From a virus (Duplodnaviria > Caudoviricetes), in IMG/VR virus record IMGVR_UViG_3300011435_000001, positions 1-64,000 of that record: a DNA stretch of 64,000 nucleotides; one strand, given 5' to 3'. Positions within the stretch are counted from its first letter, which is position 1; each line of letters begins with the position of its first letter. The notes beneath the pieces are model-generated. The model had not been told where the DNA came from, searched no databases, and saw only the letters and a program-made list of their open reading frames with translations. Shown one piece after another: positions 24,422-53,917 of the stretch. Made by a program: the position numbers and the translations under genes.

Positions 24422-24543
24422 TGGTGGGGCCCCTCTGGATTTTCACCATCGTCTAGCCCCGAAGGGCACCCGAGTTACAATCCTCAGGCCGTCTCATCGC
24501 ACTCAGTGTGTGCAATCGCGAGTGTTTCGCAGACCGGAACCCC
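24422..24543 (-). ncRNA. 122-nt tRNA-like RNA (Tyr-like) with expanded D region and long variable arm
   Basis: GGGGTTCC/GGGGCCCC acceptor + A-CCA; CCTGAG/CTCGGG stem with loop GATTGTAA; GCCC-TTCG-GGGC variable arm; TGG-TGAAAAT-CCA T-like arm. Confidence 0.7.
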
Positions 24544-24551
24544 GTAAAAAT

Positions 24552-24624
24552 TGGTGGGTCGGGGAGGGCTTTAACCTCCGTTTCACCGTTAAAACCGGTG
24601 CGTCTTGAATGAAACGACCGACCC
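24552..24624 (-). tRNA. tRNA-Lys(UUU), non-canonical
   Basis: 73-nt cloverleaf: GGGTCGG/CCGACCC, GTTT/AGAC, CACCG-GTTTTAA-CGGTG, GGAGG-TTAAAGC-CCTCC, A-CCA. Confidence 0.85.
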
Positions 24625-24632
24625 ATATCGTT

Positions 24633-24706
24633 TGAAGGGGGCAGCCCACCCCCGAGGTTACCGCCTCTATGCCCGGAGGTCCCGCTCCGGATGGCTGCGC
24701 CCTTCA
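24633..24706 (-). ncRNA. Candidate three-way-junction small RNA
   Basis: Closing stem TGAAGGG-C-GCAGCC / GGCTGC-C-CCCTTCA enclosing hairpins CCGGAG/CTCCGG and GAGG/CCTC. Confidence 0.5.
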
Positions 24707-24718
24707 CCCGACACCAGT

Positions 24719-24746
24719 AAAGTATCACAACCCGGCATCTTGTCAA
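24719..24746 (-). promoter_or_regulatory. sigma70-type promoter for the RNA cluster
   Basis: TTGACA-16-TACTTT just upstream of the three structured RNAs. Confidence 0.7.
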
Positions 24747-24937
24747 ATGCCTCCGCGTCTTTTTCTGCGACGGGTCCCACGAGGGCGAGGAAGGTAAGCA
24801 GGGTGCCCACCGCTCTACGAAGCCGCTCCCGCGCGCATTGCGCCGCGATGGTCATGGGGTATTGAGTTTTCAAAAAGAAAGGGCAGGGTTCCTTCCCTGC
24901 CCCGTTTGGCGAGCATGTCCCGGACTCTCTTCCCAAA

Positions 24938-25351
24938 TCAGTCGTTGTGATGGATGGACCCGTTTTGGTGTCCCGCGCCTCCACCATTCGCAACTCCGCC
25001 ATTGCCGCCAGCTCCACCGTTGCCTCCCGTGCCCGAGACAGTCGTGGTCGTGTTGACGCTCGTCTTGGCCGGGCGCAGGAGAGCCGCGCCGCCGACGATG
25101 CCACCAGCCGTGGCCACTGCCGGAACGAATCCGGGTCCGCCGGTCTGGTTGAGGACGGCTTCAATCGTGCCGGGCTTCTTCGGGTCGAACGCGACGATGG
25201 TCGTCTGGCTCGGAGCGAAAAGGCTCGCGGTGCGAATGCGGACGATTTTCAGTCCGTTCACTTCGCCGATGATTTTGGTGCCCGCTTGCGCGGGAGTGAT
25301 AACCGCCAACAACAGTGTCAGCGCCAGTAGGGTTTTGATGTTGTATTTCAT
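24938..25351 (-). CDS. Exported / membrane Gly-rich protein
   Basis: Signal-peptide-like MKYNIKTLLALTLLLAVITPAQA; Gly/Asn-rich C-terminus; upstream TTGACG-18-TAACCT promoter (25362-25391). Confidence 0.6.
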   Translation of the reverse strand: MKYNIKTLLALTLLLAVITPAQAGTKIIGEVNGLKIVRIRTASLFAPSQTTIVAFDPKKPGTIEAVLNQTGGPGFVPAVATAGGIVGGAALLRPAKTSVNTTTTVSGTGGNGGAGGNGGVANGGGAGHQNGSIHHND

Positions 25352-25392
25352 CAGTGTTCGTAGGTTAGCACGAGGCACGTCGCCCCGTCAAA

Positions 25393-26376
25393 TCAGAGGG
25401 TGCCTTTCCATTCTTTGCGCGCCTTGTGCGCGTCCGCCTCCACCATCATTTTGACGAGCGCGGAAAAAGTGGTTGAGGCGTGCCAGCCCAATTTATCCCG
25501 CGTCTGCGTGTGGTCCCCGAGCAGCAGGTCCACTTCCGTTGGCCTTAACAGCCGTGGGTCGAAGACCACATATTCCTGCCAAGGCTTGGGCAGGTTCGCA
25601 TACTCGAAGGCGGTGTCGAGAAAATCCCGAACGCTCCAAGTCTGGCCGGTCGCGACGACGTAATCGCCGGGCTTCTCTTGTTGCAGCATCAGGTGCATGG
25701 CCTTGACGTAGTCGCCCGCAAAGCCCCAGTCGCGCTGAGCATCCAAGTTGCCGAGCGTCAGGTTGTCTTGCAGACCGTATAAGATGCGACCGATGGCGCG
25801 CGTGATTTTGCGGGTGACGAAGGTCTCACCCCGCCGGGGACTCTCGTGGTTGAAAAGGATTCCGTTGCTCGCGTGCATCCCGTGCGCCTCGCGGTAGTTC
25901 ACCGTCGCGAAGTGCGCCATCACCTTCGCGCAGCCGTAGGGGGAGCGCGGATAAAAGGGCGTGGTCACCTTCTGCGGGTTCTCGTGGACCTTGCCGAACA
26001 TTTCGCTCGAGCCCGCTTGGTAGTATCGCGCCTCGGGGCAGCAGGTCTTCACGGCCTCGAGCATTCGCAACGCACCTAGTCCCGTCACGTCTCCCGTGTA
26101 GATTGGCTGGTCAAACGAAACTCTGACGTGCGACTGTGCCGCCAGATTGTAAACCTCGGTCGGCTTCACCTTGAGCAGTATCGCGCAAATCGACGCGAGG
26201 TCCGTCAGGTCGCTGTAGTGCAGATGAAGCCGACTAAAAATGTGGTCAATCCGGCCCGTGTTGAAAGAGGAGGAACGGCGTATGGTGCCGTGGACTTCGT
26301 AGCCCAGCTCGAGCAGGTGCTCGGCGAGGTAGGAACCGTCCTGTCCGGTGATGCCGGTGATGAGTGCGGTTTTCAT
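25393..26376 (-). CDS. gmd: GDP-mannose 4,6-dehydratase
   Basis: '[21 protein letters not shown]', '[10 protein letters not shown]', 'PRSPYGCAK', '[17 protein letters not shown]', '[11 protein letters not shown]'. Confidence 0.97.
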
Positions 26377-26385
26377 TTTCCTTGG

Positions 26386-27468
26386 TTAGTGTCCTCCCGT
26401 GATGATGGTCTTGGTCACGCGCAGTTCTTTGTCCGACGGCAGGAACTTCTTGTAGAAGCCCCGGTCGAAAAACATGTTGAACTCCGGACGAATCCGCGTG
26501 ATGGCTCCCGTGACACTCGACATTTTGAACTCGAGGATGACGCCGCCGATTTCGCAGCGCAGGTGTTGCTTGCGCGTGAACATGTCTTGGTCCTTGAAGC
26601 CCGGCATCCCGACGATATGCACGTTGCGGTCGAAGCTGTAGCCGCTGACGTGGTAGTGGCCCTGCACGAGAATCGCGGGCTTCTCTCCGCCCTGAAAACT
26701 CTCAACCATCTTCTGGCCCTTGTAGCTTCGGGCGTAGGAGCTGCCCCCTCCCGGGTGCTGAATCTTCATGATGGCCTTGTGCTCGCCGCAGGTCAGCTCA
26801 ACGTCGCCCTCGACGTGGCCAATGTAGACCATGTCATTGCGGCCCGCGCGCTCGCAGACCATCTGCAAGTAAGCGCCGAAGTTGAATCCCTCTTTTTGCC
26901 ACCATCCTTCGTGGTCGTCGCCCGTGATGAAGTGCGTGGTGATTCCGTCCCTTTGCGGGTAGTTGCGCGCGCAGTAAAGGGCCTGCCCGTCGATTGAGGT
27001 CTCATAGACGCTGGCTCCGTTAATGCGGGGCACGTAGCCGTCGACGATGTTGCCCGCGTGAAATACGTCCTTGATGCCCTCGCGCAGGAAAAGGTCATAC
27101 TGCGCGTTGAGAGCGTCCAGCCGTTCCTCGCGGCAGCACAGATGCGTGTCTGATACCAGCCCGATTTTAGTCCAAGCGTCGCCGTCGAAAACGTCGAGCG
27201 GGATGGTTCCGAACTCCGTGGGCACCGTCTTGGCTTTTTCGATGAGAGGGCAACCGGCGGGCTTCTCTGTTGATGTGGGGGCGGGCACAGCCAGTGGCTT
27301 AGTGACGATGGCGCTCTCCCGCCTCTTCACACTGTCCGGCACGAACCGCTGGCGAGCCCGGCGAACGGCAGGCTCGCTCACGCCCCAGATGTGGGCTAGT
27401 TCTGCGTCGGTGTGTCCCGAGTCAACGTCGGCACAAAAGTTCGTGATGTCTTGCGGTGTCCACTTCAT
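26386..27468 (-). CDS. Calcineurin-like metallophosphoesterase with N-terminal HTH
   Basis: 'VSDTH', 'AGNIVDG', 'GDDHE', 'GHYH'; N-terminal 'DAELAHIWGVSEPAVRRAR'. Confidence 0.85.
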   Translation of the reverse strand: MKWTPQDITNFCADVDSGHTDAELAHIWGVSEPAVRRARQRFVPDSVKRRESAIVTKPLAVPAPTSTEKPAGCPLIEKAKTVPTEFGTIPLDVFDGDAWTKIGLVSDTHLCCREERLDALNAQYDLFLREGIKDVFHAGNIVDGYVPRINGASVYETSIDGQALYCARNYPQRDGITTHFITGDDHEGWWQKEGFNFGAYLQMVCERAGRNDMVYIGHVEGDVELTCGEHKAIMKIQHPGGGSSYARSYKGQKMVESFQGGEKPAILVQGHYHVSGYSFDRNVHIVGMPGFKDQDMFTRKQHLRCEIGGVILEFKMSSVTGAITRIRPEFNMFFDRGFYKKFLPSDKELRVTKTIITGGH

Positions 27469-28052
27469 ATTGCTGTCTTGGGTTTTCGTTTGGGTTTTTC
27501 TTCCACTACTAAAATTATTTGTTCCTGCGGCGCCTTGTCGAAGGCGAGGTCGAAGGCGAGCATGGCCTCGGTGGGCGTGTTGCCCATTCCGATGATGGCG
27601 TAGCCGGGCTTCGTGATGTCTCCGTAGTAACAGATGAAACGCGCGCCGTCGTTCGCGACGGTCGGTCGGAGCTGGACCGAGGGCTTGCTCAGGACCCGCT
27701 GGCCCTCCGTCTGCGCCTTCAGAAGCTCCACCTGCGCTGTCTGCACGGCATGAATCGAATCGTAGAGCCGGTCGTGCGTGGAGGTGTCCCAGCGCGTCTT
27801 GTCTTCTAGGAGTTCGTCGATGCGGTTGCACACGTTGGTAAACGTGACTGCCGCCGCTGCCGCTGCACCACCGTCAATTTTCCTCGGCGTGTCCTCCTCG
27901 GAGAGCTGGAAGATGGAGCGATGACCGAGGATGAAGGGGCTCAGGTTCTGGATGATGCTGTGCAGCGTCTCTAGCTGCGTGCGCGTCACCGACTCCCGCG
28001 TGGGGATAGTCGCGGGAGTCACTTTGTTCTGGCTGTTATGGTCACGGCCCAT
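27465..28052 (-). CDS. Hypothetical protein
   Basis: 195-aa ORF coupled to its neighbours. Confidence 0.55.
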   Translation of the reverse strand: MGRDHNSQNKVTPATIPTRESVTRTQLETLHSIIQNLSPFILGHRSIFQLSEEDTPRKIDGGAAAAAAVTFTNVCNRIDELLEDKTRWDTSTHDRLYDSIHAVQTAQVELLKAQTEGQRVLSKPSVQLRPTVANDGARFICYYGDITKPGYAIIGMGNTPTEAMLAFDLAFDKAPQEQIILVVEEKPKRKPKTAI

Positions 28053-28543
28053 TGTAGTAAATGTAAGGCATCTGCACAGTTATCGTCAACTAAAGGAACG
28101 GTCGGGAAAAGCTTGGCGGCAGCCCGCATCATGAAATCTTTGTCTGCCGCGCCGCTGCCCGTGGCGAACTTCTTCAGCGTGGTGACCGGGCAGCAGTCCG
28201 TCTGAATGTGGTTGGCGGCGGCGAAGAGCCACACGACTGCGCGCAGGCTGGACCAGAGTTGCGTTTGCAGAGTGTATTTGGAGAACTGGACGTCCTCGAA
28301 CACCATGAACTCGATGGCTTTTTCCGGCTCGTGGTGACCGAGGTTGTTTGCCCAAACCCCGGCTAGCTTTCGCTGAAGCGCAGGAATGCGAGGGTCGAGC
28401 CGACGGTCCAGACGCTGCTTCGCGGCCTTCTTACGCAGTTCCTCGCTGATGAGCGTCCACGTGCCTGCGGTAACCTTCCCGTCACGGGCACGGTAGGCCC
28501 AGCCACATTGCGAGCCAAGGTCGAGGGCGAGAAGGGTTTTCAC
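28019..28543 (-). CDS. RuvC-like Holliday junction resolvase
   Basis: 'LLALDLG', 'FEDV', 'LKKFATGSGAADK', 'DNCADAL'; GTG start. Confidence 0.8.
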   Translation of the reverse strand: MKTLLALDLGSQCGWAYRARDGKVTAGTWTLISEELRKKAAKQRLDRRLDPRIPALQRKLAGVWANNLGHHEPEKAIEFMVFEDVQFSKYTLQTQLWSSLRAVVWLFAAANHIQTDCCPVTTLKKFATGSGAADKDFMMRAAAKLFPTVPLVDDNCADALHLLQWAVTITARTK

Positions 28544-28935
28544 TTGAGAGACCCCGGCGGGACTTCCACCCACTTCCCGTCAGCGTCTAGGACCTCGACC
28601 TTCAAGAGCTCATCCTTGGTTTCGTTGATGACGGTTTGCTCTAGCGTCTCTTCCATCTCGATTTCATATTTTTTGAGCGCCAGCCAAAACCTCATTTTTG
28701 GCGTGGCCAGCAGTCGTTTGAATGCCGACGCCTTGTTGTCTGCTTGCGAACGGGAGTCGGAGGCCCGGCCCATCGCCCCGGACTCACGGTGAATAATCAG
28801 AACGCCTGAGGCCACCTTGTTCTTGGCCTGCCCGCCTTTGCCGCTGCCACAAAAGTAGGACACATCGAAATCTTTTCGCGTAGCGAGAGTGATTTTCTGG
28901 CGGGTGTCTTCTTTGGGCTGGTTGATGATTTTCAT
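28540..28935 (-). CDS. Release-factor (RF-1 domain) GGQ peptidyl-tRNA hydrolase-like protein
   Basis: 'FCGSGKGGQAKNKVASGVLIIHRESG...DSRSQADNK' matches the GGQ domain of ArfB/PrfH-like proteins; 131 aa. Confidence 0.85.
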   Translation of the reverse strand: MKIINQPKEDTRQKITLATRKDFDVSYFCGSGKGGQAKNKVASGVLIIHRESGAMGRASDSRSQADNKASAFKRLLATPKMRFWLALKKYEIEMEETLEQTVINETKDELLKVEVLDADGKWVEVPPGSLK

Positions 28936-29639
28936 TTGGCGGCGTTCTTCTTGAAGCTCGCGCGCAGCTTCGCGATGATTTGGACGTGCGCTGCGTGGAC
29001 TGCCTGACGCGAGACGCCCCGGGCCCGCGCAATGTCGGCCATGCTGATTTTGTCGTTGTAGATTTTCCGGAGCAGCACCTTCTCTGCCGTGGTCAACTCG
29101 CAGCGGCACTTCTTGAGAGCCTCGAGGTTCAGGCCCAGCTCTTCCTTCTCCATCACGACTTCATCGGTGGAGGGCGCGGAGTCCACGGCGGGCGTGAACT
29201 TCTGCGGCGCGCGGGTGCTTTCGCCATCGTGCGTCGTGACCGTTTCCTCCGCGTATTGCGTGTAGGTCGGAAAAACATCCGCGTGCGAGGAGGGCTCGAC
29301 GGTGTTCTTCGATTTCCACAGGCCCGCGAGCGCCCCCTTCAAAAAGGGCATCAGGTAGCGGGTGAAACGGTTGCCGCGCTCCGGGTCAAACCTGTCTATC
29401 GCATTCATCAGCGCAGAATTCGCGGCTGAAATCACTTCGTCGTCCGGAAGACGCCCACGATTTTGACGCCGGGCGAATCGGGCAGCGAATAGCAAATGGT
29501 TTCGAATGAGAAACTCCCGAGACTCAGCGTTGCCCTTTTTCGCTTTGGTGAAGAGTTCTTTTTCTTCTTCCGGCGTGGTGAGTTTGAATCGCAGGTCTTC
29601 ATTTGCCCGGTAGTAGTTGCTGTTGGTCCCGTCGCTCAT
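28932..29639 (-). CDS. sigma70-family RNA polymerase sigma factor
   Basis: 'LTTPEEEKELF', 'FLIRNHLLFAARFARR', 'LMNAIDRFDPERGNRFTRY', C-terminal HTH 'SMADIARARGVSRQAV'. Confidence 0.85.
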   Translation of the reverse strand: MSDGTNSNYYRANEDLRFKLTTPEEEKELFTKAKKGNAESREFLIRNHLLFAARFARRQNRGRLPDDEVISAANSALMNAIDRFDPERGNRFTRYLMPFLKGALAGLWKSKNTVEPSSHADVFPTYTQYAEETVTTHDGESTRAPQKFTPAVDSAPSTDEVVMEKEELGLNLEALKKCRCELTTAEKVLLRKIYNDKISMADIARARGVSRQAVHAAHVQIIAKLRASFKKNAAK

Positions 29640-31897
29640 TTGGTTTTCTGGTAGTTGCTGTCAGTCCGTTGTTCAGGCACTTCCAGAACCGTCATGTTCT
29701 TCGGATAATGTGTGCAGCGGTCAATCTCGTAAATGCGGAACCCCGTCGTCACGCCTTCCTTCTCAGTAATCTTGAAAAGGTTTCCCTTGCTCAGCGTGAG
29801 CAGGTCGCGGTTGAATTTCTCGAAGGGCATTTGGCGCAGAATGTCCGTGATGCCCGGCACCTGTTGGAACTGTTGGTAGAGGTCGAGCGCGCAGCCCACC
29901 CACACGTTGGCGTCGGGCTCAATTTTCGTGAAGTATTCGCGCATCCACACGTTGATGACTTGAGCGAGCCCTGAGGTCTTGCTGGACTGCTGAGCGCTCA
30001 CCACCATCTCGGGATTGTGATACGCCTTGATGCCGCCGAAGCGGGCCTCTTCCTGAGTCGTGCCGACGCACTGGGGCGGAATCACGTAGTCTAAAAGGTA
30101 ACGGCAGAACCACGGCAGCTCGCGCGAGAGGATTGCTTGCAGCTCCTCCTGCGGCGGGAAAACTTCCTTCGGCAACTGCGCGAGGAACATCATCACCTTG
30201 TCCTTCATGCTGGCGTCAAGGTCGGGGTAAACGACGCTGTCGCTGTCCATGTTGCAGGTGATGGCGTACCTCGCCCGGCACCCAATGACGTTGCCAACGC
30301 GGAACTTTTCGTTGCACTCCCGCTCGTTGTTGGCGACGCTTTTCTTGACGCCCTCACAGAATTTTCTGTAGAGCTGCGAGTTGCCAGTGACCGAGGTGTC
30401 GTCCACCAAGTGGAGTGCGAAGTCGAAAAGCTGGGAGTTGAAAGTGGTCTCACCGAGCAGGTGCGAGGCGGCCTCCGCGAACCCGCCGACAATCTTGCCG
30501 AGAATTTCGCGGTTGCCGAAGGTCTTGCCGCAGGCGACCGGACCAGCGATGTAGATGGCGTGGCCGAGAGTCAGCTTGCGATAATAGCAGCCCTTGTAGA
30601 AGTAGCTGGCCCAGCTCAGATAGTAAGGGAGCTGGTCGGGCGTCGTGAAAAAGTTGTCGTAGTATTTTGAAATCCACGGGAACTGTCCGTCGGGTCCCCA
30701 GACGGCGTCGCCGTTCGCGGGGGGCATCGCGTCGATGTTGTGGGTGTTCAGGTATTGGTGACCGTTGAAAAGAATCCTGCCCTTCGGGAAGAACGCGAAG
30801 CTGGCCATGCCCTTCACGCGTTGCTGACTGTGAACGTGCGCGATAGCCGCCTCCACTTCGGAAAAGTTGTCTCCCTTTTTCTTGCTGACCTCGCGGGTGA
30901 GCCCGCGCATCACGACCAGCTCGTTGATGACGTTGTCCTTGTTGAGGACGTCCCAGCGACCGCACTCGCGCTTCACGGTGTAGTCTTTTCCGTCGAAGTA
31001 AATGTCCTTGACGGCGTTCCCGATTCGGCCTTCCTCGAAGCGCTTCACCCAGTCGGCACCGAGCAGCTCAGCCCAGCTCCACCAGCCCTTGCCGGTTTGG
31101 CGCGCGTGATTCGAAAAGGAATACATTCCGTTGGCCCCGACGATGGCGGAGTTCTCTGACTTGGAACCGTCCACCCAGAAGGTCGGCCCCTGCGCGCCTT
31201 CGGTGAAGTCGACGGTCCACTCCTTGAAGCGTGGGTATTTGTCCTTCAGCTCGCGAAATCTTTCGGCGACGATGTGATACGGAATGGTGATGCCCGGCTC
31301 GTTGTCCTTCCACGCGTAGCTCCGCACCAGCTTCAGCATCCAACCGCAGATGCTGCCCCAAGGCACCGGAGTCGGGTGAATCTGTTTCCACTCGCAGCCG
31401 TTCATGTAGTAGCGCGAAGGCTCGAGGTAGCCCGCGTCCAAGTTGCTCAGCTCTTGGATGGGCAGGAACTCGTGGAGATGCTTCAGGATGAAGTTGGCAA
31501 AGTTGCGGGAGGAGAGCATGATGGGCCGCTCGAAAATCCAGACGAGCCGCCAGTTGCCGGAGAGGGACCGCTCCACCCAGTTCGGCTTGATGTCCATGCG
31601 GGCGAAGGCCCGCTCGAGTTCTTCCCAAGTGAACTTGGCGTCGTAGTCGCCCGTGAAACTATTCATCTCGCGGGGCGCGTTCGCGTTTTCTTTTCCGCCC
31701 TTCTCGCTCACGCGCCCGTTCTCGTTCACGCCCACGAACGAGGAGTAGAACATGTAGTCAGTCGCGGGGGCGTTCCCCCACGCAATGCGCGCCGCCTTGT
31801 CGGCGATGCAGTTTTCGGGGATGAGGGATTTCTTGTCGAACTCCCACGGATTGCCCTCAAAGGTGGTTTGGGAGGAGAGATTCTTTAAATATCGCAC
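29636..31897 (-). CDS. Primase-helicase (AEP-like N-terminus, DUF5906/SF3-like ATPase)
   Basis: 'GDYD' and 'SLSG' in the N-terminus; Walker A 'AGPVACGKT'; 'HLVDD'; 'AITCN'. Confidence 0.75.
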   Translation of the reverse strand: MRYLKNLSSQTTFEGNPWEFDKKSLIPENCIADKAARIAWGNAPATDYMFYSSFVGVNENGRVSEKGGKENANAPREMNSFTGDYDAKFTWEELERAFARMDIKPNWVERSLSGNWRLVWIFERPIMLSSRNFANFILKHLHEFLPIQELSNLDAGYLEPSRYYMNGCEWKQIHPTPVPWGSICGWMLKLVRSYAWKDNEPGITIPYHIVAERFRELKDKYPRFKEWTVDFTEGAQGPTFWVDGSKSENSAIVGANGMYSFSNHARQTGKGWWSWAELLGADWVKRFEEGRIGNAVKDIYFDGKDYTVKRECGRWDVLNKDNVINELVVMRGLTREVSKKKGDNFSEVEAAIAHVHSQQRVKGMASFAFFPKGRILFNGHQYLNTHNIDAMPPANGDAVWGPDGQFPWISKYYDNFFTTPDQLPYYLSWASYFYKGCYYRKLTLGHAIYIAGPVACGKTFGNREILGKIVGGFAEAASHLLGETTFNSQLFDFALHLVDDTSVTGNSQLYRKFCEGVKKSVANNERECNEKFRVGNVIGCRARYAITCNMDSDSVVYPDLDASMKDKVMMFLAQLPKEVFPPQEELQAILSRELPWFCRYLLDYVIPPQCVGTTQEEARFGGIKAYHNPEMVVSAQQSSKTSGLAQVINVWMREYFTKIEPDANVWVGCALDLYQQFQQVPGITDILRQMPFEKFNRDLLTLSKGNLFKITEKEGVTTGFRIYEIDRCTHYPKNMTVLEVPEQRTDSNYQKTK

Positions 31898-39040: not shown

Positions 39041-40531
39041 TCATAACATCGAGAAGATGCCACTCAACTCGTGCTCTGTCAAATGGAGATTTGAAGCCAG
39101 CAGGTCCCCGTCGTTGAAGGCGTCCTGCTGGTTCAGGCGTGTCACCAAGCGGCGATGCACGTGCTCCTGCCGCGTGCCCGCGGCCAGAACTACCCGGTAG
39201 AGGGACTTGCTCTTGGCCCCGATGCGCGGGAGTCTCCCGAAAACTTGGCGGATGTTGACCGCCGAGTTGCAAGGCGAAACGTGGCCAACACGAGGAAAAG
39301 AGCCGTCGAAGTCAGCAAGAGTAATACAGATGCCGCCAGCAGCAGAGTTGCAGTTGATAACACGGTGGCTGTTATTTTGAAAAGCGTCGATGTTGTCATC
39401 GCGGCGTGCCTTGCCTTTTGCGCCCACTTGGCTACCGTCGATGCGACAGTCGGTTTTGAGTCGCGTGCAGAGTTCATCCAGTGTTTGAGTGAACGTCACG
39501 AAGTTAGCCACGCTGTAGCCCTGCTCGTTCGCGTCCTCGGTTAGCTGCACGAATACGGGAACCATCAGTAGCTCGATTTCTTGTAGCGAGCGGATGATGA
39601 CGGTGAGATGTGATTCCTTGTCCGTCGCCGCCTTGTCGCGGAGCGCGCGGATGGAGTCGTCCATCTGTTCGTAAAGCTTGTCAATCGCGCGGCCCTCGGC
39701 GAGGTCATACAACTCCGCGGAAATACTGCACTCAGGAAAGTCGGGTAGGTCTTTGATGCGAACGCGAGTGCCGTGGTCTGGAAAAATTTCTTCGTTGAGC
39801 CGCGCCATCGTGCGCTTGCGGTCGTCCTCCTTCCCTGCGAAATAAAATCCTCCGTGCGGAGACGGTCGGCAGTTCCACTTGCGCACCCAAGTCCAGAAGC
39901 GCAGACCGGCGTCCAGCTCGTGGAGTCCCAGCACATAGCCCAGCGCTTTGAAGTCAAGCGGGCTGTCGCCAGCGGTGGCTGAGAGTCCGAGAGTTTTCAG
40001 GCCCTGTCGCTTCGCCGCAATCAGCATCTCTGCGTTGAGTGAGTCCGTGGCCTTGCAGCGGTGAACCTCGTCGAACACAGCCGCCTTTACCTCAGGATGA
40101 AAAAGAAATCTCCCGTAATTGTGAGGGATGGTTTTTGTTTCAACGCAGTGACACGCACCGTAAGGACACTTCGGGGTGGTGTCGTCTTCCACCCAGCACT
40201 GGCACACGGTGCATTTGAGTCGCGACTTGAGTGGCCCGGTCTTCGGAAATTGCCAGCGACCAAAGGGAGTCTTCCCGGTCCGAAGCTTCTCGTAGCCAAC
40301 AACATCGAACTCCACGCCGAGATGCTCACCGGCACGCAGCCAGCCAGTTTTTGCGACGTCGGGGCAGACTACTAACGTGGGAAGATTTAGTTCTCGCAAC
40401 ACCGCACCGGCGACGTAGGTCTTGCCGGTGCCCATGTCTGAACCATCGAGGGCCGCGCCATCGCGCCGAAGGCAAGCGAGCAAGTGCCGCGCTGCGTCAG
40501 GTTGATGGGGCTTCAGACCCTCTACGTTCAT
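39041..40531 (-). CDS. SF2 (SNF2/DEAH-like) helicase
   Basis: 'DMGTGKT', 'FDEVHRCK', 'GLSAT', 'QVFGRLPR'. Confidence 0.85.
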   Translation of the reverse strand: MNVEGLKPHQPDAARHLLACLRRDGAALDGSDMGTGKTYVAGAVLRELNLPTLVVCPDVAKTGWLRAGEHLGVEFDVVGYEKLRTGKTPFGRWQFPKTGPLKSRLKCTVCQCWVEDDTTPKCPYGACHCVETKTIPHNYGRFLFHPEVKAAVFDEVHRCKATDSLNAEMLIAAKRQGLKTLGLSATAGDSPLDFKALGYVLGLHELDAGLRFWTWVRKWNCRPSPHGGFYFAGKEDDRKRTMARLNEEIFPDHGTRVRIKDLPDFPECSISAELYDLAEGRAIDKLYEQMDDSIRALRDKAATDKESHLTVIIRSLQEIELLMVPVFVQLTEDANEQGYSVANFVTFTQTLDELCTRLKTDCRIDGSQVGAKGKARRDDNIDAFQNNSHRVINCNSAAGGICITLADFDGSFPRVGHVSPCNSAVNIRQVFGRLPRIGAKSKSLYRVVLAAGTRQEHVHRRLVTRLNQQDAFNDGDLLASNLHLTEHELSGIFSML

Positions 40532-41073
40532 CAGAGCGTGACCTTAAGGATGACCACCGTCCCGTTGGCCAGCGGTCCGTCGACGGGAACCACAACCCCA
40601 TTTTGCGGCTCGAGGAAAAACCATTGACCATCATTGCGGCGTATGACGTTCATCACGTGGTAACCGAGAATTAAACCGTCCTCGGTTGAGATGCGGACGT
40701 AGGCCATGCCGACGGCCACGGCGGCGCGGGAATTTTTGTAGTGCCGCAATGCCCACACGTCCATCCAGTGCTTGGCCTCGCGTGCGAAGTTGTCACAGTC
40801 CCAAGACTCCTCAGTATATTTCGTCCACTCTTTGTGGGACATGGCGAAGGCGACCATCTCTTCGATGTCAGACTGCGTGGGAGAAATGTAAAACGCATCT
40901 TCGGGCCCCGTGACGATGCCCAGCTCAGAGCTGTCTCTCGGCATCTTCCATTGCAGGCACTGCTCGATGGTGGCAGCGATTTCATTCCAGTCGAGGATGG
41001 AGTAGCGTTCAGTGGGTTCAGCTTGCGCTGCTAGGGTGACTGCGAGCAGCAGGCTCGCAACGATTTTTTTCAA
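40531..41073 (-). CDS. Exported papain/transglutaminase-fold protein
   Basis: Signal peptide MKKIVASLLLAVTLAAQA; 'WDCDNFA', 'YHVMN', 'WFFLEPQ' give a putative C-H-E triad. Confidence 0.6.
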   Translation of the reverse strand: MKKIVASLLLAVTLAAQAEPTERYSILDWNEIAATIEQCLQWKMPRDSSELGIVTGPEDAFYISPTQSDIEEMVAFAMSHKEWTKYTEESWDCDNFAREAKHWMDVWALRHYKNSRAAVAVGMAYVRISTEDGLILGYHVMNVIRRNDGQWFFLEPQNGVVVPVDGPLANGTVVILKVTL

Positions 41074-46844: not shown

Positions 46845-47329
46845 GATTTTGTTGCGTCGATGTCCTTCTGAGTCACCACCACGGGCGCGAAGACCGTCGG
46901 TGCCACCGCTTCACCAGCGAGGCCGGCTTCTTCCATTTGCTTCTGGCACTTGAAAAGGAAGTTGATGCCATCGCACACCATCTGTGCCGTCTCGGGCTGA
47001 CGGGTCGTGGCCAAGAAACCGGGCCGAGGTTCCTTGGTGGCATCGGGTTCAATGTTCACGCACACCACATACACTCCCGGGCGCGTGGGCTGGCTCACCC
47101 ACTCGCAGATAAGCCCGCTTGAAGGGAACGGGTAAAACTTCATGCCCTCCGCTTCCTTGTGTTGTTGTTCCGGAGAAACTTCAGTCTCCGTCTTCTTGTA
47201 GTCCGCTCCTTGCACCACCACCTTGTTGCTGGCGTGCTGCACGAACTGTGCCTTGATGTTGTCGATGTTCGCCGCAGTGGGGTGCAGCGGACGGTGTTTT
47301 CCGTTGTGGGTGTTGTTGGTGTTGCTCAT
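46841..47329 (-). CDS. Hypothetical protein
   Basis: 162-aa ORF, coupled. Confidence 0.55.
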
Positions 47330-47498
47330 GGTTTTGTGATGAGGGCTCTTTGGTTTTCTGCTGCGATGTCCCCGCATTGCGCGAGTCTATATTTTCTGAG
47401 CGAGGCGAGGGCTGCCTTCTCTCCCGGAGTCAGGCCAAGCCTCTCCACCCTTCGCTCATTGGCTTCCTCTTTCGCCTTGATGCTGCGTGACATTGCGC

Positions 47499-48428: not shown

Positions 48429-48919
48429 GGCATGTCGCAGACACTGCTTGGAGAAGGAGGGTTTATTTTCCGGGGGAAAGGGCGTTGGTATTCGATGATT
48501 ATCTTTTTACATATATCTTTATACACGAGTTAGTATATGTGTGTGTGTATAGGTGAACAGTGACGCCCAAATCCCCGGAAAATCTAGGGGCCTTGGGGCG
48601 CACAGACACAGGGGCGCGAAGATGGGGCTATGCCCCCTTTTAATTTTGGGGTGGCGTGTGAGACCCAAAAGGCGCAAAGGCGAACTGGATTGACATTCGC
48701 CGCTCACGCGGACCTATTGTGTGTGCCACTCGACACAAACGAACCGATGGACCCCGAGCAGCCCACCAGTGCTGCGGGCTCACCAGCCGAACAGGACAAG
48801 GAGGCCGCACTTTTCGAAGCGGCTCCAGCAATTGCCAAGCTGCTCTATCAGGAGAGCAAGAGGGTGCGGCGAATGGTGGCACGAAAGTTGTGGTGGCAGA
48901 ACAACAAGGGCCCCAAGAC

Positions 48920-49162
48920 ATGAGCGTGGAACCAATCCAGTGGGTCTTACTGTGCAAGATGAACGACGACCCCGCTGACCAATGGGAGGAATCAGTTCAC
49001 TCGCCCAAGGACGGATTTACAGACCGGTCTGTGGCGCTGAGAGCGTGCGCGAAGCTCAGGAAATACACTGAACAGTTTTTCTACTGCGTGGCGCCGCGAC
49101 ACAATTGCGAGACTTACCCGAAGACTGGGCTGCTCCGACTCAAGGCAGGATTTGAATCGTGA
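48920..49162 (+). CDS. Hypothetical protein
   Basis: MSVEPIQWVLL...; coupled to the next gene. Confidence 0.45.
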   Translation: MSVEPIQWVLLCKMNDDPADQWEESVHSPKDGFTDRSVALRACAKLRKYTEQFFYCVAPRHNCETYPKTGLLRLKAGFES

Positions 49163-49803
49163 AGCCAATCGACAAGAATAAGATTGACGTGGCTCAGGCT
49201 TTTCTCGTTTACATGGCCTGCGTCGGTGACACCGACAAGACAGCCGTGGCGCTCGACCTCGAGCCAGAGCAGGTGCGATTGCTTGCGGAGTCTGAGGGCT
49301 GGACAGATAAGATTCGGCGCGTGTCCCTCATGTCCAAGAGCGGCAAGCCCGGCGACTTCGAACGTGCAACCAATCGCGCGCTTGCGTTCGTGCAGGCTCA
49401 GTGTATCCGTGAGCAAGTCAATCGACTGTTGCGCGAGGTCACGAAGATGACCGACGACGAGCTGCTGAGCCGTGCGTGCGTTCGCACTCGCGATGGTGGA
49501 CAGCAAATCTCAGCCAAGTTTTTGGTGGACCTTGCGGGCGCAGCCGAGGCTTGCCATCGCATGGCTTACATGGCCTTGGGCGACACTGTGACTGAGCGAG
49601 CAGAGCGCGAAGGCGGAGGCACAGGCGGACCGAACAGCAACGACATGCACAGTGCAATTATTGCGCACCTAAGCAATCCCGGGCTCAACCCTGAGCCAGT
49701 AACGCAACGCCTTATCAACGAGGCAAATGCGGAGATACAGCGTAGGTCTACAGTAGAATCCCCACTCGATAAGTCGGGGATTGCTGAAGCAGAGGACCAG
49801 TGA
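49159..49803 (+). CDS. Possible terminase small subunit
   Basis: N-terminal HTH-like 'DKTAVALDLEPEQVRLLAESEGW' followed by helices; head of the late block; weak evidence. Confidence 0.35.
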   Translation: MKPIDKNKIDVAQAFLVYMACVGDTDKTAVALDLEPEQVRLLAESEGWTDKIRRVSLMSKSGKPGDFERATNRALAFVQAQCIREQVNRLLREVTKMTDDELLSRACVRTRDGGQQISAKFLVDLAGAAEACHRMAYMALGDTVTERAEREGGGTGGPNSNDMHSAIIAHLSNPGLNPEPVTQRLINEANAEIQRRSTVESPLDKSGIAEAEDQ

Positions 49804-50187
49804 GCGAACATCGAGCGCCTTAACTCGGCGCGTCGGTGCGCCAAAATGGCACAGTGCGTGATTCTCACGCATCCAGATTGGGTGAATACACCCAACTCCA
49901 GTTGGTCCGTTGGACCTCGCGTCCGTAAGGCACACAGGACCAGCAGCTTGCGGGCGCAAGAAGAGTGCCCACACTCGCAACAGAGGCTCTCGGCAAGATT
50001 TGCCTATCGGTTTCGAGGTCGCGAGGACCCCACCCGGCCCGGGGGAATCCGGGGGGAGGGGGTCGGCTCAGCAGTCGCCGCGCCATGAAAAAATATGCCT
50101 TCTCGTGACCTCTACGTCTTGACGCTACCGGAGTTCTACGACATGGGGGAAATCCCCCCTTTGACTCGACGTCTTCCCGCCCCACTC

Positions 50188-50215
50188 TTGACAACTTTCC
50201 GACCTGTGCGACATT
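50188..50215 (+). promoter_or_regulatory. sigma70-type promoter, leaderless
   Basis: TTGACA-16-(TGC)GACATT-5 nt-ATG (50221). Confidence 0.6.
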
Positions 50216-50220
50216 ACGTC

Positions 50221-50688
50221 ATGATAGAAAACTTCACCTACACCGACGGTGGCCGCCGGGCCGATAATTTTCACTTCGAGCGAAAAGACTGCACGGTCCG
50301 CGCTCTTGCCATCGCCTCAGACCAGCCCTATTCGTGGGCTCACGGAATTCTCAAATCTCTGGGTCGACCGACCGGCAAGGGCTTTCGCTTCTCCACCGCT
50401 GCCACTCACTTGGCCCTCACCGAGCACGCCCAACCGAAGCGCGGCTGTGGTCGCAGCCGTGTGAAAACAGCCATCAGGAAATACGCCAAGGGCCGTTTCA
50501 TCTTCCGCATCCGCGGCCACGTTTTCGCAGTGGTCGACGGAGTCATCCACGACAGTAGCGAACCCCGCACTCTCCTCAACTGCACGGTCACCGCTGTGTG
50601 GGAGTGGAATGGACTCGCGACTCCCCCAGTTGACACCGCGAAGGTTTCGTGCGACACTCTGCCATTGTTCACTGTGCCCGCAATATGA
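50221..50688 (+). CDS. Papain-fold (C39-like) peptidase-like phage protein
   Basis: 'DCTVRALAIA', 'RGHVFAVVDGVIHD' give a C-H-D triad. Confidence 0.65.
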   Translation: MIENFTYTDGGRRADNFHFERKDCTVRALAIASDQPYSWAHGILKSLGRPTGKGFRFSTAATHLALTEHAQPKRGCGRSRVKTAIRKYAKGRFIFRIRGHVFAVVDGVIHDSSEPRTLLNCTVTAVWEWNGLATPPVDTAKVSCDTLPLFTVPAI

Positions 50689-50945
50689 AAAAACTTTTCC
50701 TCACTCTTGCCCTCGCCCTCGCCGCATCGAGTGCGCCCGCCCTCCACGTGGAGTGGGACTTCGACGCGCGGTATCTTGACACACTGATTTACTGGAACGA
50801 CGAACACCGCAGGTGGGACCCGGTGCCGGGACCCTACGAGGTGCGCAACGGCAAGTATTTCATCCCGATTGTCGCCGACCAACCGTCGCGGCTCTATCGC
50901 GTGGCACGCGTCGACGGAACTCCGCAAGTAATCACATCTCCATGA
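50685..50945 (+). CDS. Small exported protein
   Basis: Signal peptide MKKLFLTLALALAASSAPA. Confidence 0.6.
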   Translation: MKKLFLTLALALAASSAPALHVEWDFDARYLDTLIYWNDEHRRWDPVPGPYEVRNGKYFIPIVADQPSRLYRVARVDGTPQVITSP

Positions 50946-51379
50946 AACTCCTCCCCCTCTCACTGCTTTTCGTTTGTCTGACTACGTGTGTGCTGTCGGC
51001 TGACGAGTCGTTGCCGGAGTTTAAGCGGCTCCCGCACTGGCGGCAGCACGAGAAGTGCCTGCCCTTTTCCTACGAGTGCTTGGAAGCGCTCCACGCCAAG
51101 GGGATTCCGGCAACGCAAATTTTTTACAAGTGGCAGCAGGCCGGGGAACACGGAGAAGATTCCGGGTTCCACGCCGCCGTGCTTTTCCAGCACAAGGGAA
51201 AGTTCTGGTTCATGGACAACACGCGCTTCGCTCCGCGCGAGGTCACGGCGAAGACGGACCACGGCTGCATTATGCAGACGCAACCGTCGAAGCTGGTGTT
51301 CATCACCCTCGTCGACCGTTGGGGGAACAAGCAACCAACGCGGCTGTTATCAGACCGATTCAGGAAGGCGGGAATATGA
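50942..51379 (+). CDS. Exported papain/transglutaminase-like protein
   Basis: Signal peptide; 'KCLPFS', 'FHAAVLF', 'FWFMDN'. Confidence 0.5.
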   Translation: MKLLPLSLLFVCLTTCVLSADESLPEFKRLPHWRQHEKCLPFSYECLEALHAKGIPATQIFYKWQQAGEHGEDSGFHAAVLFQHKGKFWFMDNTRFAPREVTAKTDHGCIMQTQPSKLVFITLVDRWGNKQPTRLLSDRFRKAGI

Positions 51380-51663
51380 CCAGCAAATCCATCATCCAAT
51401 CCTACGTCTATCCAGAGGGCAAGCCCGACACCGAGTGCTACATGGTCTCGACCATAGAGCGCGACAGCTCCGCTGCCGCACATGCGGGCACCTATTTCGA
51501 GACCATCGTTTGGAAGTGGGACACCAAGACGCGTCAGCGCGAGGACAAAATCTTGCTGGTGGAAAACAGCGTGAAAACGCTCACGCACCATCAGGTCATT
51601 TGTGAAACGATTTTCCTGCACGGTATTGAAAGGCTTTGCAGCCCCGAACTTGACAACCGCTGA
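51376..51663 (+). CDS. Hypothetical protein
   Basis: 'YMVSTIERD...YFETIVWKWD'. Confidence 0.55.
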   Translation: MTSKSIIQSYVYPEGKPDTECYMVSTIERDSSAAAHAGTYFETIVWKWDTKTRQREDKILLVENSVKTLTHHQVICETIFLHGIERLCSPELDNR

Positions 51664-51820
51664 ATCTGTGGCACCTTTCCTGCCAGATGAAAAAGCTGAA
51701 ACCCATCAAGGTGCGAAGACACTGGGGCACGCTCTCACCTGTGACCCGGGTCAAGCCGTCGGCGAAAATCTACAACCGAAAATCAACCAAGAATCAAAAC
51801 CAGTGAGAACACCAGACGAA

Positions 51821-52162
51821 ATGAGTGCGCGACTAGCGGCGCAGGAGGCCCACCGTGACTCCGCAGTAGAGACCCGCGTAAAAGAGCTGGCCCTCCAGTG
51901 GGTTGCCGCCCTCAACGACAGCGTGGAGAAGGCCTTCAACTCGGAGTGGCCTGTGGAGTCCGTCTCCGTCGCATCCAACCAGCTTGAGGTCGGCTCAACA
52001 AAGACGCCCTTTGAGGACGTGATAACGCTGGCTGCGGACCGTGTGACGTCGCACTTCCTAACCCAAAAGGGGACCCCCGGGTTCAACGCTTGGAAGCATG
52101 TAAGCAAATATGGCTGGGTTTCCGTTGAAGTGGTTTGGGGCACCCCGCCGAAAGCAACATGA
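51821..52162 (+). CDS. Hypothetical protein
   Basis: ORF coupled to the recombinase. Confidence 0.45.
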   Translation: MSARLAAQEAHRDSAVETRVKELALQWVAALNDSVEKAFNSEWPVESVSVASNQLEVGSTKTPFEDVITLAADRVTSHFLTQKGTPGFNAWKHVSKYGWVSVEVVWGTPPKAT

Positions 52163-52875
52163 AAGTTTTCGCCTACCTTCGCGTCAGCACCAAGGAACAA
52201 CTGGACGGCGGCGGATTTGAACGCCAGCTCGAGACCATCAAGTCACTCTGCGCGCACCGCGGCTGGACCATCGCCCGAGCCCCCTTCCGCGACCAGCAAA
52301 GTGGCGGGACGGAATTCGAAGGACGCGCCGGGCTGCAAGAAATTCTCGCCCTCGCTGGCGGGGACAACGCCCTCGGCATTGATACCGTCGTGGTGGAAAA
52401 CGCCTCTCGCATTGCGCGCGACCTGATGGTGCAGGAGATTTTTCTGAGTGAGTGCCGCAAGAGACAAATCAAAGTCGTAGCCGCCGACTGCGGCGAGGAA
52501 CTCGTCATGGCGGGTGCGGACCCCACGCGGGTTCTGATTCGACAGATTCTCGGTGCCTTGGCCCAGTGGGAAAAATCCCAGACCGTCTTGAAGCTGCAAG
52601 CGGGGCGGCGCAAGAAGGCGCGCGAGACTGGGGTGCCCTGCGGTGGTCCCGTGCCCTACGGAAAGAACCCCGGAGAACTGGCGGTCATTGCTGACATTTG
52701 GAAACTCCGCAAGGCGGGCAAGTCGATGCGAGACATCGCGAATAAAATGCAGGAACTCGGTTACCCGGCGCCCGCGGGAAAAAACTGGTATGGCGTCACG
52801 GTGCTACAGATTTTACGGCGCGAAGAGAACCGGCGCTCCGCTGAACTCAGGTTCTCAATGGACAACGACCAATGA
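52159..52875 (+). CDS. Serine recombinase (resolvase catalytic domain plus short recombinase-type C-terminus)
   Basis: 'AYLRVSTKEQ', 'RQL', 'SG...RAGL', 'VVENASRIARDL'. Confidence 0.9.
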   Translation: MKVFAYLRVSTKEQLDGGGFERQLETIKSLCAHRGWTIARAPFRDQQSGGTEFEGRAGLQEILALAGGDNALGIDTVVVENASRIARDLMVQEIFLSECRKRQIKVVAADCGEELVMAGADPTRVLIRQILGALAQWEKSQTVLKLQAGRRKKARETGVPCGGPVPYGKNPGELAVIADIWKLRKAGKSMRDIANKMQELGYPAPAGKNWYGVTVLQILRREENRRSAELRFSMDNDQ

Positions 52876-53038
52876 AGCCAGAGAACACCAAGACTGGTCC
52901 AGTGGAGTGGCCCGATGACCCGCTGGAAGTGGAGACGCCGCCGAACAAGAAGCGCTACCGCCGCGTGAAGAAGTCTGTGAAGAAGGGTGTGGTAGTGGTG
53001 CAGCCGCCGAAGACTGAGAAGTCTGACGAGATACTTTT

Positions 53039-53266
53039 ATGAGCCACGACGCCGCAAAACAAATCGTGCGCGAATACGACAGGCTGTGCAAGTCGAACGC
53101 GGCTTTCCGAGAGTTCGTGGAGTTCTGCCCGAGCGCCTCGATGGAGGAGAGTCTGGAAAGCTGGAAGTGGGTTTCCGCACTCATCGAGAAAGCGATTCAC
53201 CGGACGATTCGTGATTTGACGCAGCCGCCCGCGCCGCCTACACTGGGCAAACAGAAAGACCGATAG
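53039..53266 (+). CDS. Hypothetical protein
   Basis: 75-aa ORF. Confidence 0.45.
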   Translation: MSHDAAKQIVREYDRLCKSNAAFREFVEFCPSASMEESLESWKWVSALIEKAIHRTIRDLTQPPAPPTLGKQKDR

Positions 53267-53267
53267 C

Positions 53268-53546
53268 ATGAACGCAAAAATACTCACCGCTCCCAATGGC
53301 GTGCTCATTCGCGCCGACCACATCATCTCGGTGTCTCCGATTATACAGTCATCCGAACTGGGCACAGACGGCTTCGAGGTTTACGTCATCGGCTCGGAAG
53401 CACCTTACGTGTTCGCGGCGGAGTGGGCCCCGGATTGCATCAGCGAAAAGAAGCGCAAGGAGAAAACGGTGAATCTGCGGCAGGAGTTCGTGGATGCGTG
53501 GGCGGCGGCACTCGGCTGGGGGACCTTACCTTTTTCCAACAACTGA
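53268..53546 (+). CDS. Hypothetical protein
   Basis: 92-aa ORF. Confidence 0.5.
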   Translation: MNAKILTAPNGVLIRADHIISVSPIIQSSELGTDGFEVYVIGSEAPYVFAAEWAPDCISEKKRKEKTVNLRQEFVDAWAAALGWGTLPFSNN

Positions 53547-53550
53547 CGTC

Positions 53551-53790
53551 ATGTTTTCCCTCTCTGGAATCAAGCTAGCTAACCGCCCCAAGCAGGTCGC
53601 CAAGGCGCGACGCCTCGCCCGCGCGCTCAACGCGAGGGACAAGAAGCACCCGAAGAATTTTGAGAAGACGGGACGAGCAATCTGCGACGAACTGAACAGG
53701 AACGCGTCCCGGCGCGCGAAGGTTGTGTTCTACGCGGACACCCCAAAGCCCTACGACATCGAGGAGCTGAGGAAGACAAATTTTTCCTGA
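53551..53790 (+). CDS. Small basic hypothetical protein
   Basis: MFSLSGIKLANRPKQ... Confidence 0.45.
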   Translation: MFSLSGIKLANRPKQVAKARRLARALNARDKKHPKNFEKTGRAICDELNRNASRRAKVVFYADTPKPYDIEELRKTNFS

Positions 53791-53791
53791 G

Positions 53792-53821
53792 TTGACAGCG
53801 CACCAGTTCGCGCGATATGTT
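53792..53821 (+). promoter_or_regulatory. sigma70-type promoter for tRNA and ncRNA
   Basis: TTGACA-18-TATGTT, 24 nt upstream of the tRNA. Confidence 0.65.
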
Positions 53822-53844
53822 CAGGTGTAGTAGCTCTTTGAAAT

Positions 53845-53917
53845 TGCGGGGAGAATGGGATTCAAGTCAGTCTCATAAGCTGACCTCTGGTGGTTCGACT
53901 CCACCCCGCCGCAACCA
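53845..53917 (+). tRNA. tRNA with CAU anticodon (elongator Met or Ile2), atypical
   Basis: TCAGT-CTCATAA-GCTGA; GGTGG-TTCGACT-CCACC; A-CCA; acceptor with bulged G; shortened D arm. Confidence 0.8.

Follow-up and report, generated by a model that had tools for sequence, protein, structure and literature searches.

Phage tRNAs that act against tRNA-cutting defences are an active topic of research, and so are the RNA-repair and ribosome-rescue genes of phages. For jumbo phages it was reported that tRNA provisioning, ligases of the Rnl1, Rnl2 or RtcB type and end-healing enzymes together constitute a counter-defence complement (PMC7824862). A GGQ hydrolase is coupled to RNA repair in the PrfH-RtcB2 pair (PMC9304027; PMC6514570), an RF-1-domain gene is a core element of one type of mycobacterial tRNA array (PMC5966550), and phage-encoded Lys and Tyr tRNAs were shown to defeat PARIS and PtuAB (PMC11464382; PMC11555353). 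Here, we analysed bases 1-64000 (the window; G+C 59%) of the 72,647-bp virus record IMGVR_UViG_3300011435_000001, which carries direct terminal repeats and is rated 100% complete. An earlier note on this DNA had combined three CCA-encoded non-canonical tRNAs or tRNA-like RNAs, a stand-alone GGQ protein, an Rnl2-like RNA ligase, a metallophosphoesterase and an HD protein into one dispersed kit that would counter abortive tRNA cleavage by replacing, repairing and rescuing. With a probability of roughly 60%, these are instead separate translation-touching genes of a mid-sized uncultured phage and not one system. The observation was partly confirmed and its interpretation is partly supported, for tRNA supply and ribosome release, not for repair. 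The gene set is a smaller, incomplete example of a concept that has already been published. Most of its parts assort independently and two belong to DNA metabolism or remain unconfirmed; the case limits readings of this kind: suggestive genes listed from a single genome do not make a system.

In a Megablast search, 20 kb of the sequence found no match among known phages, and the DNA polymerase shares no more than 27% identity with its counterpart in any isolated phage; judged by these sequence comparisons, the phage has no close relative among isolated phages. Among sequencing runs, the single DNA run found to carry the sequence is a freshwater sediment metagenome, which may be its source, and no RNA run was listed. 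The genome under study (G000) was compared with 14 related IMG/VR contigs (G001-G014), mostly of 47-75 kb, which were retrieved by a search with the phosphoesterase, so that the presence of this gene in all 14 is by construction. The co-occurrence of the parts that a kit would predict was not found in these relatives. The RF-1/GGQ gene is present in none of the 14, a 12.7-bit match in G001 being noise. The RNA ligase is present, absent or decayed: it scores above cut-off in seven of the 14 relatives (8/15 including G000), and G003 holds a remnant of 42 amino acids (aa) with three stops. Matches to the tRNA family RF00005 occur in 7/14 relatives (8/15 including G000), with anticodons over the 15 genomes that include CAU, Pro, Ala, Gly and Lys, and the tRNA absences are soft, because ARAGORN and Rfam miss such odd tRNAs. 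An HD-like gene is found in four of 14, the closer relatives G001, G002, G003 and G005 only. The parts also part company within single genomes, as G002 and G003 have the HD-like gene without an intact ligase, G009 has the ligase without a tRNA, and G007 and G010 have tRNAs without the ligase. The gene-order table displays insertions at the tRNA and GGQ slots, and the sigma-factor gene directly adjoins the RuvC-like gene in G001, G002 and G003, which leaves no space for a GGQ gene. In the genome under study the parts are spread over at least four separate loci with differing transcription contexts (Table 1). This independent gain and loss in related phages argues for separate accessory genes and against a coordinated kit.

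Table 1. Features of the window considered in this analysis (strand and kind of support as found).
Feature	Position	Strand	Support
125-nucleotide CCA-ending tRNA-like RNA ("Tyr-like", probable RNA gene)	24422..24546	-	fold, position, 3' end
tRNA-Lys(UUU), encoded CCA, non-canonical elbow	24552..24624	-	Rfam RF00005, cloverleaf fold
Metallophosphoesterase, ~360 aa, helical helix-turn-helix-like N-terminus	26386..27468	-	Metallophos_2, predicted fold
Bare GGQ protein (release-factor domain 3), 131 aa, between sigma-factor and RuvC-like genes	28540..28935	-	PF00472, phrog_3122
Rnl2-type ATP-dependent RNA ligase, 311 aa	37485..38420	-	PF09414, phrog_548, predicted fold
Candidate divergent HD-domain protein, 228 aa	41018..41704	-	H..HD motif, ESM-Atlas lead
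Sigma-70-like promoter, TTGACA-18 nucleotides-TATGTT, ahead of the CAU tRNA	53792..53821	+	pattern scan
tRNA(CAU), U1:A72, one bulged G in the acceptor stem	53845..53917	+	ARAGORN tRNA-Met, covariation

The GGQ protein was found as it had been described. It matches PF00472 with 49.6 bits against a cut-off of 35, with the GSGKGGQ loop intact, and phrog_3122 over its full length (E = 2.5e-19). The family comprises 225 homologues of ~130 aa with 57-80% identity, in which SYFCGSGxGGQ is invariant; among 21 aligned homologues GGQ is invariant and the C-terminal residues W84, E114, W122, E124 and V125 are conserved like the GGQ loop. The best sequence matches in the PDB are domain 3 of PrfH, RF1 and RF2 and mitochondrial C12orf65, and ArfB and ICT1 are not among the PDB matches. 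The NCBIfam scores are far under the cut-offs for RF1, RF2, PrfH and ArfB, with 19.9 against 100 for the ArfB model NF006718 and 36.3 against 166.65 for the PrfH model TIGR03072. As a small GGQ protein without a codon-reading domain it resembles ArfB (YaeJ) and ICT1; however, it has no basic C-terminal tail, as its last 56 residues are acidic (net charge ~ -4) and part of the conserved domain. PrfH, the best PDB match to the GGQ loop region, is a two-domain protein of ~200 aa, and the PrfH-RtcB2 pair likewise joins a GGQ hydrolase to an RNA ligase (PMC9304027; PMC6514570). Yet PrfH has a recognition domain and is operonic with RtcB, whereas here a bare domain 3 is found without RtcB and the ligase is of the ATP-dependent Rnl2 type, is encoded at a distance of 8.6 kb and comes and goes independently of the GGQ gene. 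In sequence, the GGQ protein amounts to the catalytic domain of a release factor alone, with neither a codon reader nor an ArfB tail, and its family is widespread in phages.

The contexts of the GGQ gene in further GGQ-bearing contigs (including L047-L050) were inspected to 10 kb on either side. Only the 50-kb contig L048 is syntenic with this phage at the GGQ gene and carries the ligase 10 kb upstream. On L047 the gene follows a resolvase, a transfer-messenger RNA (tmRNA) and a CAU tRNA, on L050 it follows a 2493-aa protein, and on four further contigs its neighbourhood includes genes for DnaB, ERF or an integrase. Within this distance the ligase accompanies the GGQ gene only here and in L048 (seven other contexts inspected). 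On L047 the tmRNA (71.1 bits in Rfam, cut-off 47) and the CAU tRNA (98 bits with its own model) lie at most 1.3 kb upstream of the GGQ gene; the tmRNA of this relative, a 72,513-bp ENA contig, is a full RF00023 tmRNA at L047:3127-3447 (+), for which ARAGORN gives the tag ALNLPRGRRLPA*. This phage's own genome has no tmRNA. Among known phages, the phrog_3122 stand-alone RF-1 proteins ScottMcG gp204 and prophi86-1 gp136 are similar to the protein described here, with ~130 aa, 37-42% identity over 84-89% of the length and an intact GGQ. The RF-1 gene of Mycobacterium phage prophi86-1, with 39% identity, stands inside an array with a tmRNA and >20 tRNAs, followed by RtcB and Pth. In comparison with such phages, the genome studied here has three tRNA-like genes and not 20-35, and it has no tmRNA, RtcB or Pth. 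The GGQ gene is thus mobile among genome positions of different phage backbones; its link with tRNA or tmRNA genes recurs in unrelated phages, and no such recurrence was seen for the ligase, the phosphoesterase or the HD protein. Of the proposed kit, only the connection of tRNA supply with ribosome release has comparative support, and the repeated placement of phrog_3122 genes beside tmRNA or tRNA genes gives this uncharacterised GGQ family a testable role. The neighbours of the gene in ScottMcG (cluster C, 154 kb) are a recombinase and a Holliday-junction resolvase, and here a RuvC-like gene similarly stands beside it. This proximity (28019-28935 here, RuvC-like, phrog_159; 115553-117374 in ScottMcG, locus L040, with one recombinase gene between) may be either chance or a conserved pairing.

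Among the three RNAs is a tRNA with the anticodon CAU. It is the sole ARAGORN tRNA call in the genome, as tRNA-Met(CAU), and reaches 23.4 bits on RF00005, below the cut-off of 29. Its D arm consists of a 4-bp stem and a 3-nucleotide loop. Homologues in G001 and on L047 keep the cloverleaf with eight of 22 pairs changed on both sides, and 95.5% of the cells in the alignment of the three copies are paired, compared with at most 58% in slid controls. The promoter ahead of the gene matches at ten of 12 positions, with 0.1 such matches expected by chance, and a TTGAC...GATATGTT element is kept upstream in G001 and G002. With a three-copy model and the Rfam tRNA model, CAU-type tRNAs were found in G001, G003, G005, G007, G010 and G012, so that the gene is common across the lineage and constitutes a feature of the clade, not a special acquisition of this phage.

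The acceptor stem of this RNA is initiator-like (UGCGGGG...CCGCA-A-CCA). We compared it with the E. coli tRNA-Met gene metW of the three-gene tandem array metZWV, which comprises the E. coli initiator tRNA genes. Common to both are GCGG(G/A)G at positions 2-7 (GCGGGG in the phage), the 3' end CCGCA-A-CCA and the anticodon loop CUCAUAA. At 1:72, a weak U1:A72 pair in G000, G001, G003 and G007 resembles the unpaired 1:72 of initiators, and so does an A1xC72 mismatch in L047. The GCGG...CCGC pairs and A73 are conserved in the CAU tRNAs, as initiators require. However, the three G:C pairs (29-31:39-41) in the anticodon stem are missing, the stems being GUCAGU/GCUGAC, UUUUGU/GCAAAA and ACGAGC/GCUUGU, and the miniature D arm and the bulged G in the acceptor stem are further differences from initiator tRNA-fMet. 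Blastn of this phage's CAU tRNA against E. coli gave zero matches; the CAU relative in G005 does match the E. coli initiator tRNA genes. Among the neighbours of the gene is a 246-aa serine recombinase (52135-52875, +; Resolvase and partial Recombinase domain) ~1 kb upstream, and on L047 a resolvase likewise stands ahead of the cluster of tmRNA, tRNA and GGQ gene. On the 3' side, an open reading frame (ORF)-free stretch (53921-54224) has no Rfam match and is partly kept in G001 (54162-54230, 79% identity); the gene at 54237-54863 is absent in G001.

The other two RNAs lie next to each other in a hypervariable slot between a small ORF (24667-24864) and a helicase gene. The tRNA-Lys was missed by ARAGORN and by both Rfam runs over the whole window (gathering and E-value thresholds), which found zero tRNAs; short slices or model searches of the genome set recovered tRNAs. 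In a 1-kb Rfam search it matched RF00005 at 24555-24624 (-) with 42.7 bits (E = 1.6e-7), above the cut-off of 29. The anticodon UUU and A73 followed by the encoded CCA are combined with a D-loop CAUUCA without GG, a T-loop UUAAAGC and a G at position 32. The minimum free energy (MFE) of its cloverleaf has z = -3.7, and none of 200 shuffles folds as well. No Lys tRNA was found in the 14 relatives with the Rfam tRNA model and ARAGORN, an absence that is soft. The 125-nucleotide RNA begins in a gap free of ORFs, five nucleotides after tRNA-Lys ends. Its fold is as it had been described, with an 8-bp acceptor stem, two extra D-region hairpins inside a GUCU/AGAC stem, an 8-nucleotide loop GAUUGUAA, a UUCG-capped variable arm, a 3-bp T stem and a terminal ACCA; the MFE is -50.3 kcal/mol (z = -2.4), and 5/200 shuffles fold as well. 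It has no matching Rfam family; the 1-kb Rfam search gave no tRNA or tRNA-Sec match up to E = 10 and ARAGORN made no call. A single-sequence model found zero homologues in the 14 relatives and L047-L050, and an exact 18-nucleotide pattern from the Tyr-like anticodon arm has 0 matches among IMG/VR viral contigs. CCA followed by AUUU closes all three RNAs. By its fold, its position and this common 3' end CCA-AUUU, the 125-nucleotide stretch is a probable RNA gene, and its assignment to Tyr is a guess. The CCAATTT tail was considered as a genome-wide signal and rejected (8 matches compared with 6.5 expected).

Within the set compared, tRNA-Lys and the 125-nucleotide RNA are unique to G000. In relatives the slot is filled by other tRNA-like RNAs or by nothing; in G003 the homologue of the small ORF abuts the helicase, so that ~3.9 kb including both tRNA-like genes are extra here. 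In G001 the same slot holds a 99-nucleotide tRNA-like RNA (L020; G001:48092-48190, +; Rfam tRNA 43 bits) without an encoded CCA, in which the D and T arms are canonical and two hairpins with 5-nucleotide loops (CACAA, CAUAA) replace the single anticodon arm. Furthermore, non-coding stretches of 100-450 nucleotides were observed behind promoters (TTGAC, ~17 nucleotides, GATAGT or GATATG) at L048:13800-14250, L044:1480-1740 and, on the minus strand, L043:1380-1520. They have embedded tRNA-like T arms (GGUUCGAG/ACC) and a terminal CCAATTTC, and they are unreported by ARAGORN and the Rfam tRNA model, with one weak mascRNA-like (tRNA-like) match of 23.5 bits.

The RNA ligase, too, bore out its earlier naming. 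It matches PF09414 with 58 bits and also phrog_548. In 33 homologues K31 (KVDGS), D33, G34, E86, E168, G169, K173 and K188 are invariant, with an EGxVxK motif. Sequence searches of the PDB with the ligase and the phosphoesterase gave nothing useful, and fold searches were therefore used for both. The AlphaFold model of the ligase (pLDDT 89) has a helical C-terminal domain with helices across residues 192-298, and its combination of nucleotidyltransferase and alpha-helical C-terminal domain is that of T4 Rnl2 (gp24.1). Full-length T4 Rnl2 occupies ranks 1-3 of the fold matches, followed by the Naegleria RNA ligase (NgrRnl) and trypanosome REL1; the top 40 are RNA ligases, except for one Aquifex entry deposited as putative DNA ligase, and characterised DNA ligases match at E >= 1.6e-4. 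The DNA ligase family PF01068 is absent from the genome, and the Rnl2-type enzyme is the only polynucleotide ligase found. On motifs and model it is confirmed as Rnl2-type, and sealing of 3'-OH/5'-PO4 nicks in RNA is predicted. We know of no biological role of T4 Rnl2 itself. In the fragmentary relative G013 the ligase domain (G013:32262-32672; L036) lies in a 752-aa open frame, possibly a fusion.

A repair pathway of the T4 type, in which a 5'-OH kinase and a 2',3'-phosphoesterase heal the ends, was not found. The AAA_33 polynucleotide kinase (PF13671) is absent from the whole genome, and Pfam scans, which covered 40 ORFs, revealed no kinase, HAD or 2H family. Since no polynucleotide kinase was detected, breaks with 2',3'-cyclic-phosphate/5'-OH ends would not be healable and the ligase would seal only 3'-OH/5'-phosphate breaks. 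Metal-dependent tRNA-cutting nucleases (tRNases) leave 3'-OH/5'-P ends. The jumbo-phage complements resemble this genome in that ligase, tRNAs and a release-factor domain occur in one genome; however, no Pnkp-type kinase/phosphatase, RlaP, 2H or HAD protein was found here in the Pfam scans, and the genome has only 72.6 kb (PMC7824862).

The metallophosphoesterase exists, with the motifs DxH, GNxxDG, DDHE, H and GHYH invariant and the gene in 14/14 relatives, but it does not fit an RNA kit. Its ORF of 481 codons is open to 27831; the start in relatives is at M122, and the 121 codons ahead of it form an arginine-rich overlap. The protein reaches 22.4 bits on Metallophos_2, under the cut-off of 27, and has no P-loop domain. 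In Foldseek its model (pLDDT 73) matches the PolD DP1 exonuclease with E = 1e-8 and Mre11 with 2e-6, and SbcD as well, and the gene adjoins a RuvC-like resolvase. This fold and this neighbour point to DNA recombination or repair and not to healing of RNA ends; judging from the model, the protein probably acts as a DNA nuclease within the recombination block and stands outside any RNA kit. The "HD protein" of the earlier note is probably the candidate listed in Table 1, which has an H..HD motif and an ESM-Atlas lead to HD clusters (score 0.93, TM 0.44-0.49) but no Pfam or NCBIfam match and no other profile support. PF01966 has no match in the whole of G000, and the sole PF01966 HD match in the genome set was observed on the G013 contig mentioned above.

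If the parts are taken as separate genes, they would bear on translation to varying extents. The phage tRNAs would sustain initiation and Lys decoding, perhaps also Tyr, when those of the host run short or are cut. The GGQ protein would hydrolyse peptidyl-tRNA on ribosomes that are stalled without a stop codon through a missing or broken tRNA or mRNA; as it has neither a codon-reading domain nor an ArfB-type tail, it probably needs another route onto the ribosome. The ligase might reseal breaks such as metal-dependent nucleases leave, not the 2',3'-cyclic phosphate/5'-OH ends of the PrrC type. Of replacing, repairing and rescuing, tRNA supply and ribosome release are plausible, with the GGQ gene beside tmRNA and tRNA genes in L047 and prophi86-1, whereas repair and the single kit failed the co-occurrence check that the earlier note itself had set. 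If the GGQ protein is indeed a tail-less, codon-independent release factor, this would be a new mode of recruiting a GGQ domain to stalled ribosomes.

Several points weigh against separate genes. The relatives are metagenomic contigs and partly incomplete, so that absences are soft. One close relative, L048, has kept the GGQ gene together with the ligase and a tRNA-like RNA, in unchanged order. The Lys anticodon, the GUA-containing loop and the CAU anticodon coincide with targets of tRNases, PARIS/PrrC for Lys (PMC11464382) and PtuAB/Septu for Tyr (PMC11555353; PMC13096335), which is some evidence for selection by defence systems. The single counter-defence kit, in which variant tRNAs replace, the phosphoesterase or HD protein and the ligase repair and the GGQ protein frees ribosomes, draws on the same match of anticodons to known tRNase targets (PMC11464382; PMC11555353) and on L048, and its concept has been published for jumbo phages (PMC7824862). 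Every part of it exists save a firm HD protein, and an Rnl2-type ligase could, as we infer, seal the 3'-OH/5'-P ends of metal-dependent tRNases without end healing. Nevertheless we regard it as improbable: the parts do not co-occur in the 14 relatives and are spread over different loci and transcription units, the GGQ gene moves about and has no ligase close by in 5 of 7 other contexts, a kinase was not detected in the genome, the phosphoesterase is a core gene with a DNA-nuclease-like fold and the CAU tRNA is common across the lineage. The tRNA-Lys and tRNA-Tyr of phage T5, which neutralise PARIS and retron Ec78 PtuAB, offer a parallel in that they too are phage-encoded, of the Lys and Tyr types and altered in the anticodon arm (PMC11464382; PMC11555353), but the Tyr-like RNA here is far from a canonical tRNA.

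One possibility is that the genes serve ordinary translational economy, which appears rather unlikely. The CAU tRNA would boost initiation, perhaps of leaderless early mRNAs, or decode AUG/AUA, Lys(UUU) would supplement AAA/AAG where the codon bias of the host differs, and the GGQ protein and ligase would be unrelated housekeeping add-ons. This would agree with the conservation, own promoter and initiator-like acceptor stem of the CAU tRNA, with the variable tRNA sets usual in phages and with the abundance of Lys (59 codons per 1000, 32% of them AAA). However, ATA is rare in an otherwise unremarkable codon usage (36 codons), the three G:C pairs of initiators are lacking in the anticodon stem, and simple supplementation needs no remodelled elbow or anticodon loops. 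Alternatively, some of the tRNA-like RNAs, above all that of 125 nucleotides, might not decode and could be decoys, handles for processing or parts of larger non-coding RNAs with tRNA-like ends. The 8-nucleotide anticodon loop, the 3-bp T stem and the expanded D region fit a translating tRNA poorly, and promoter-driven non-coding RNAs of 300-450 nucleotides in relatives embed tRNA-like modules and also end in CCAAUUU; yet the 125-nucleotide RNA has neither homologue nor covariation, and its A73, G1-C72, GUA and long variable arm resemble tRNA-Tyr. We consider this alternative very improbable. A bolder proposal, which we regard as doubtful, would be that a clade of ~70-kb uncultured phages keeps its own family of CCA-encoded non-canonical tRNA-like RNAs with a bare GGQ domain travelling along, as a phage-owned layer of initiation and ribosome release when host tRNAs are cut, with odd elbows and anticodon loops selected to escape tRNases. 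The members of this family would be the initiator-like tRNA(CAU) with its 3-nucleotide D-loop, the hairpin-expanded RNAs of 99-125 nucleotides and one tmRNA, several of them behind sigma-70-like promoters. New in detail are the initiator-like tRNA family with a miniature D arm and the orphan 125-nucleotide RNA; the covarying tRNA(CAU), conserved in an uncultured phage clade, is worth keeping.

Apart from these features, a leftward block at ~19-48.5 kb comprises a UvrD-like helicase, sugar genes, a sigma factor, a primase-like gene, a family A DNA polymerase, a PD-(D/E)XK nuclease, a second helicase and many small ORFs. A 180-aa protein inside the replication block (40531-41073, -) shows weak C-terminal matches to agglutinin/ricin-type beta-trefoil lectins (27.6 bits). 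Sugar-metabolism genes are scattered at 20793-21599, 25393-26376 and 54977-56047 and encode a pyruvyl-transferase-like protein, a GDP-mannose 4,6-dehydratase and an NAD-dependent epimerase. At 60-66% identity, the gmd gene matches those of Planctomycetota, Cyanobacteria, Verrucomicrobiota and other phyla, and as its matches spread over many bacterial phyla, it gives no clue to the host. An N4-like genome was considered and rejected, as the 3031-aa protein encoded at 9018-18113 (+) is no virion RNA polymerase but a polyvalent protein of the ART/GNAT kind; it contains ART-PolyVal, GNAT, DUF7178 and L5 gp82-like domains. Homologues of this protein are found in most relatives, and the 2493-aa protein that precedes the GGQ gene in L050 is one of them.

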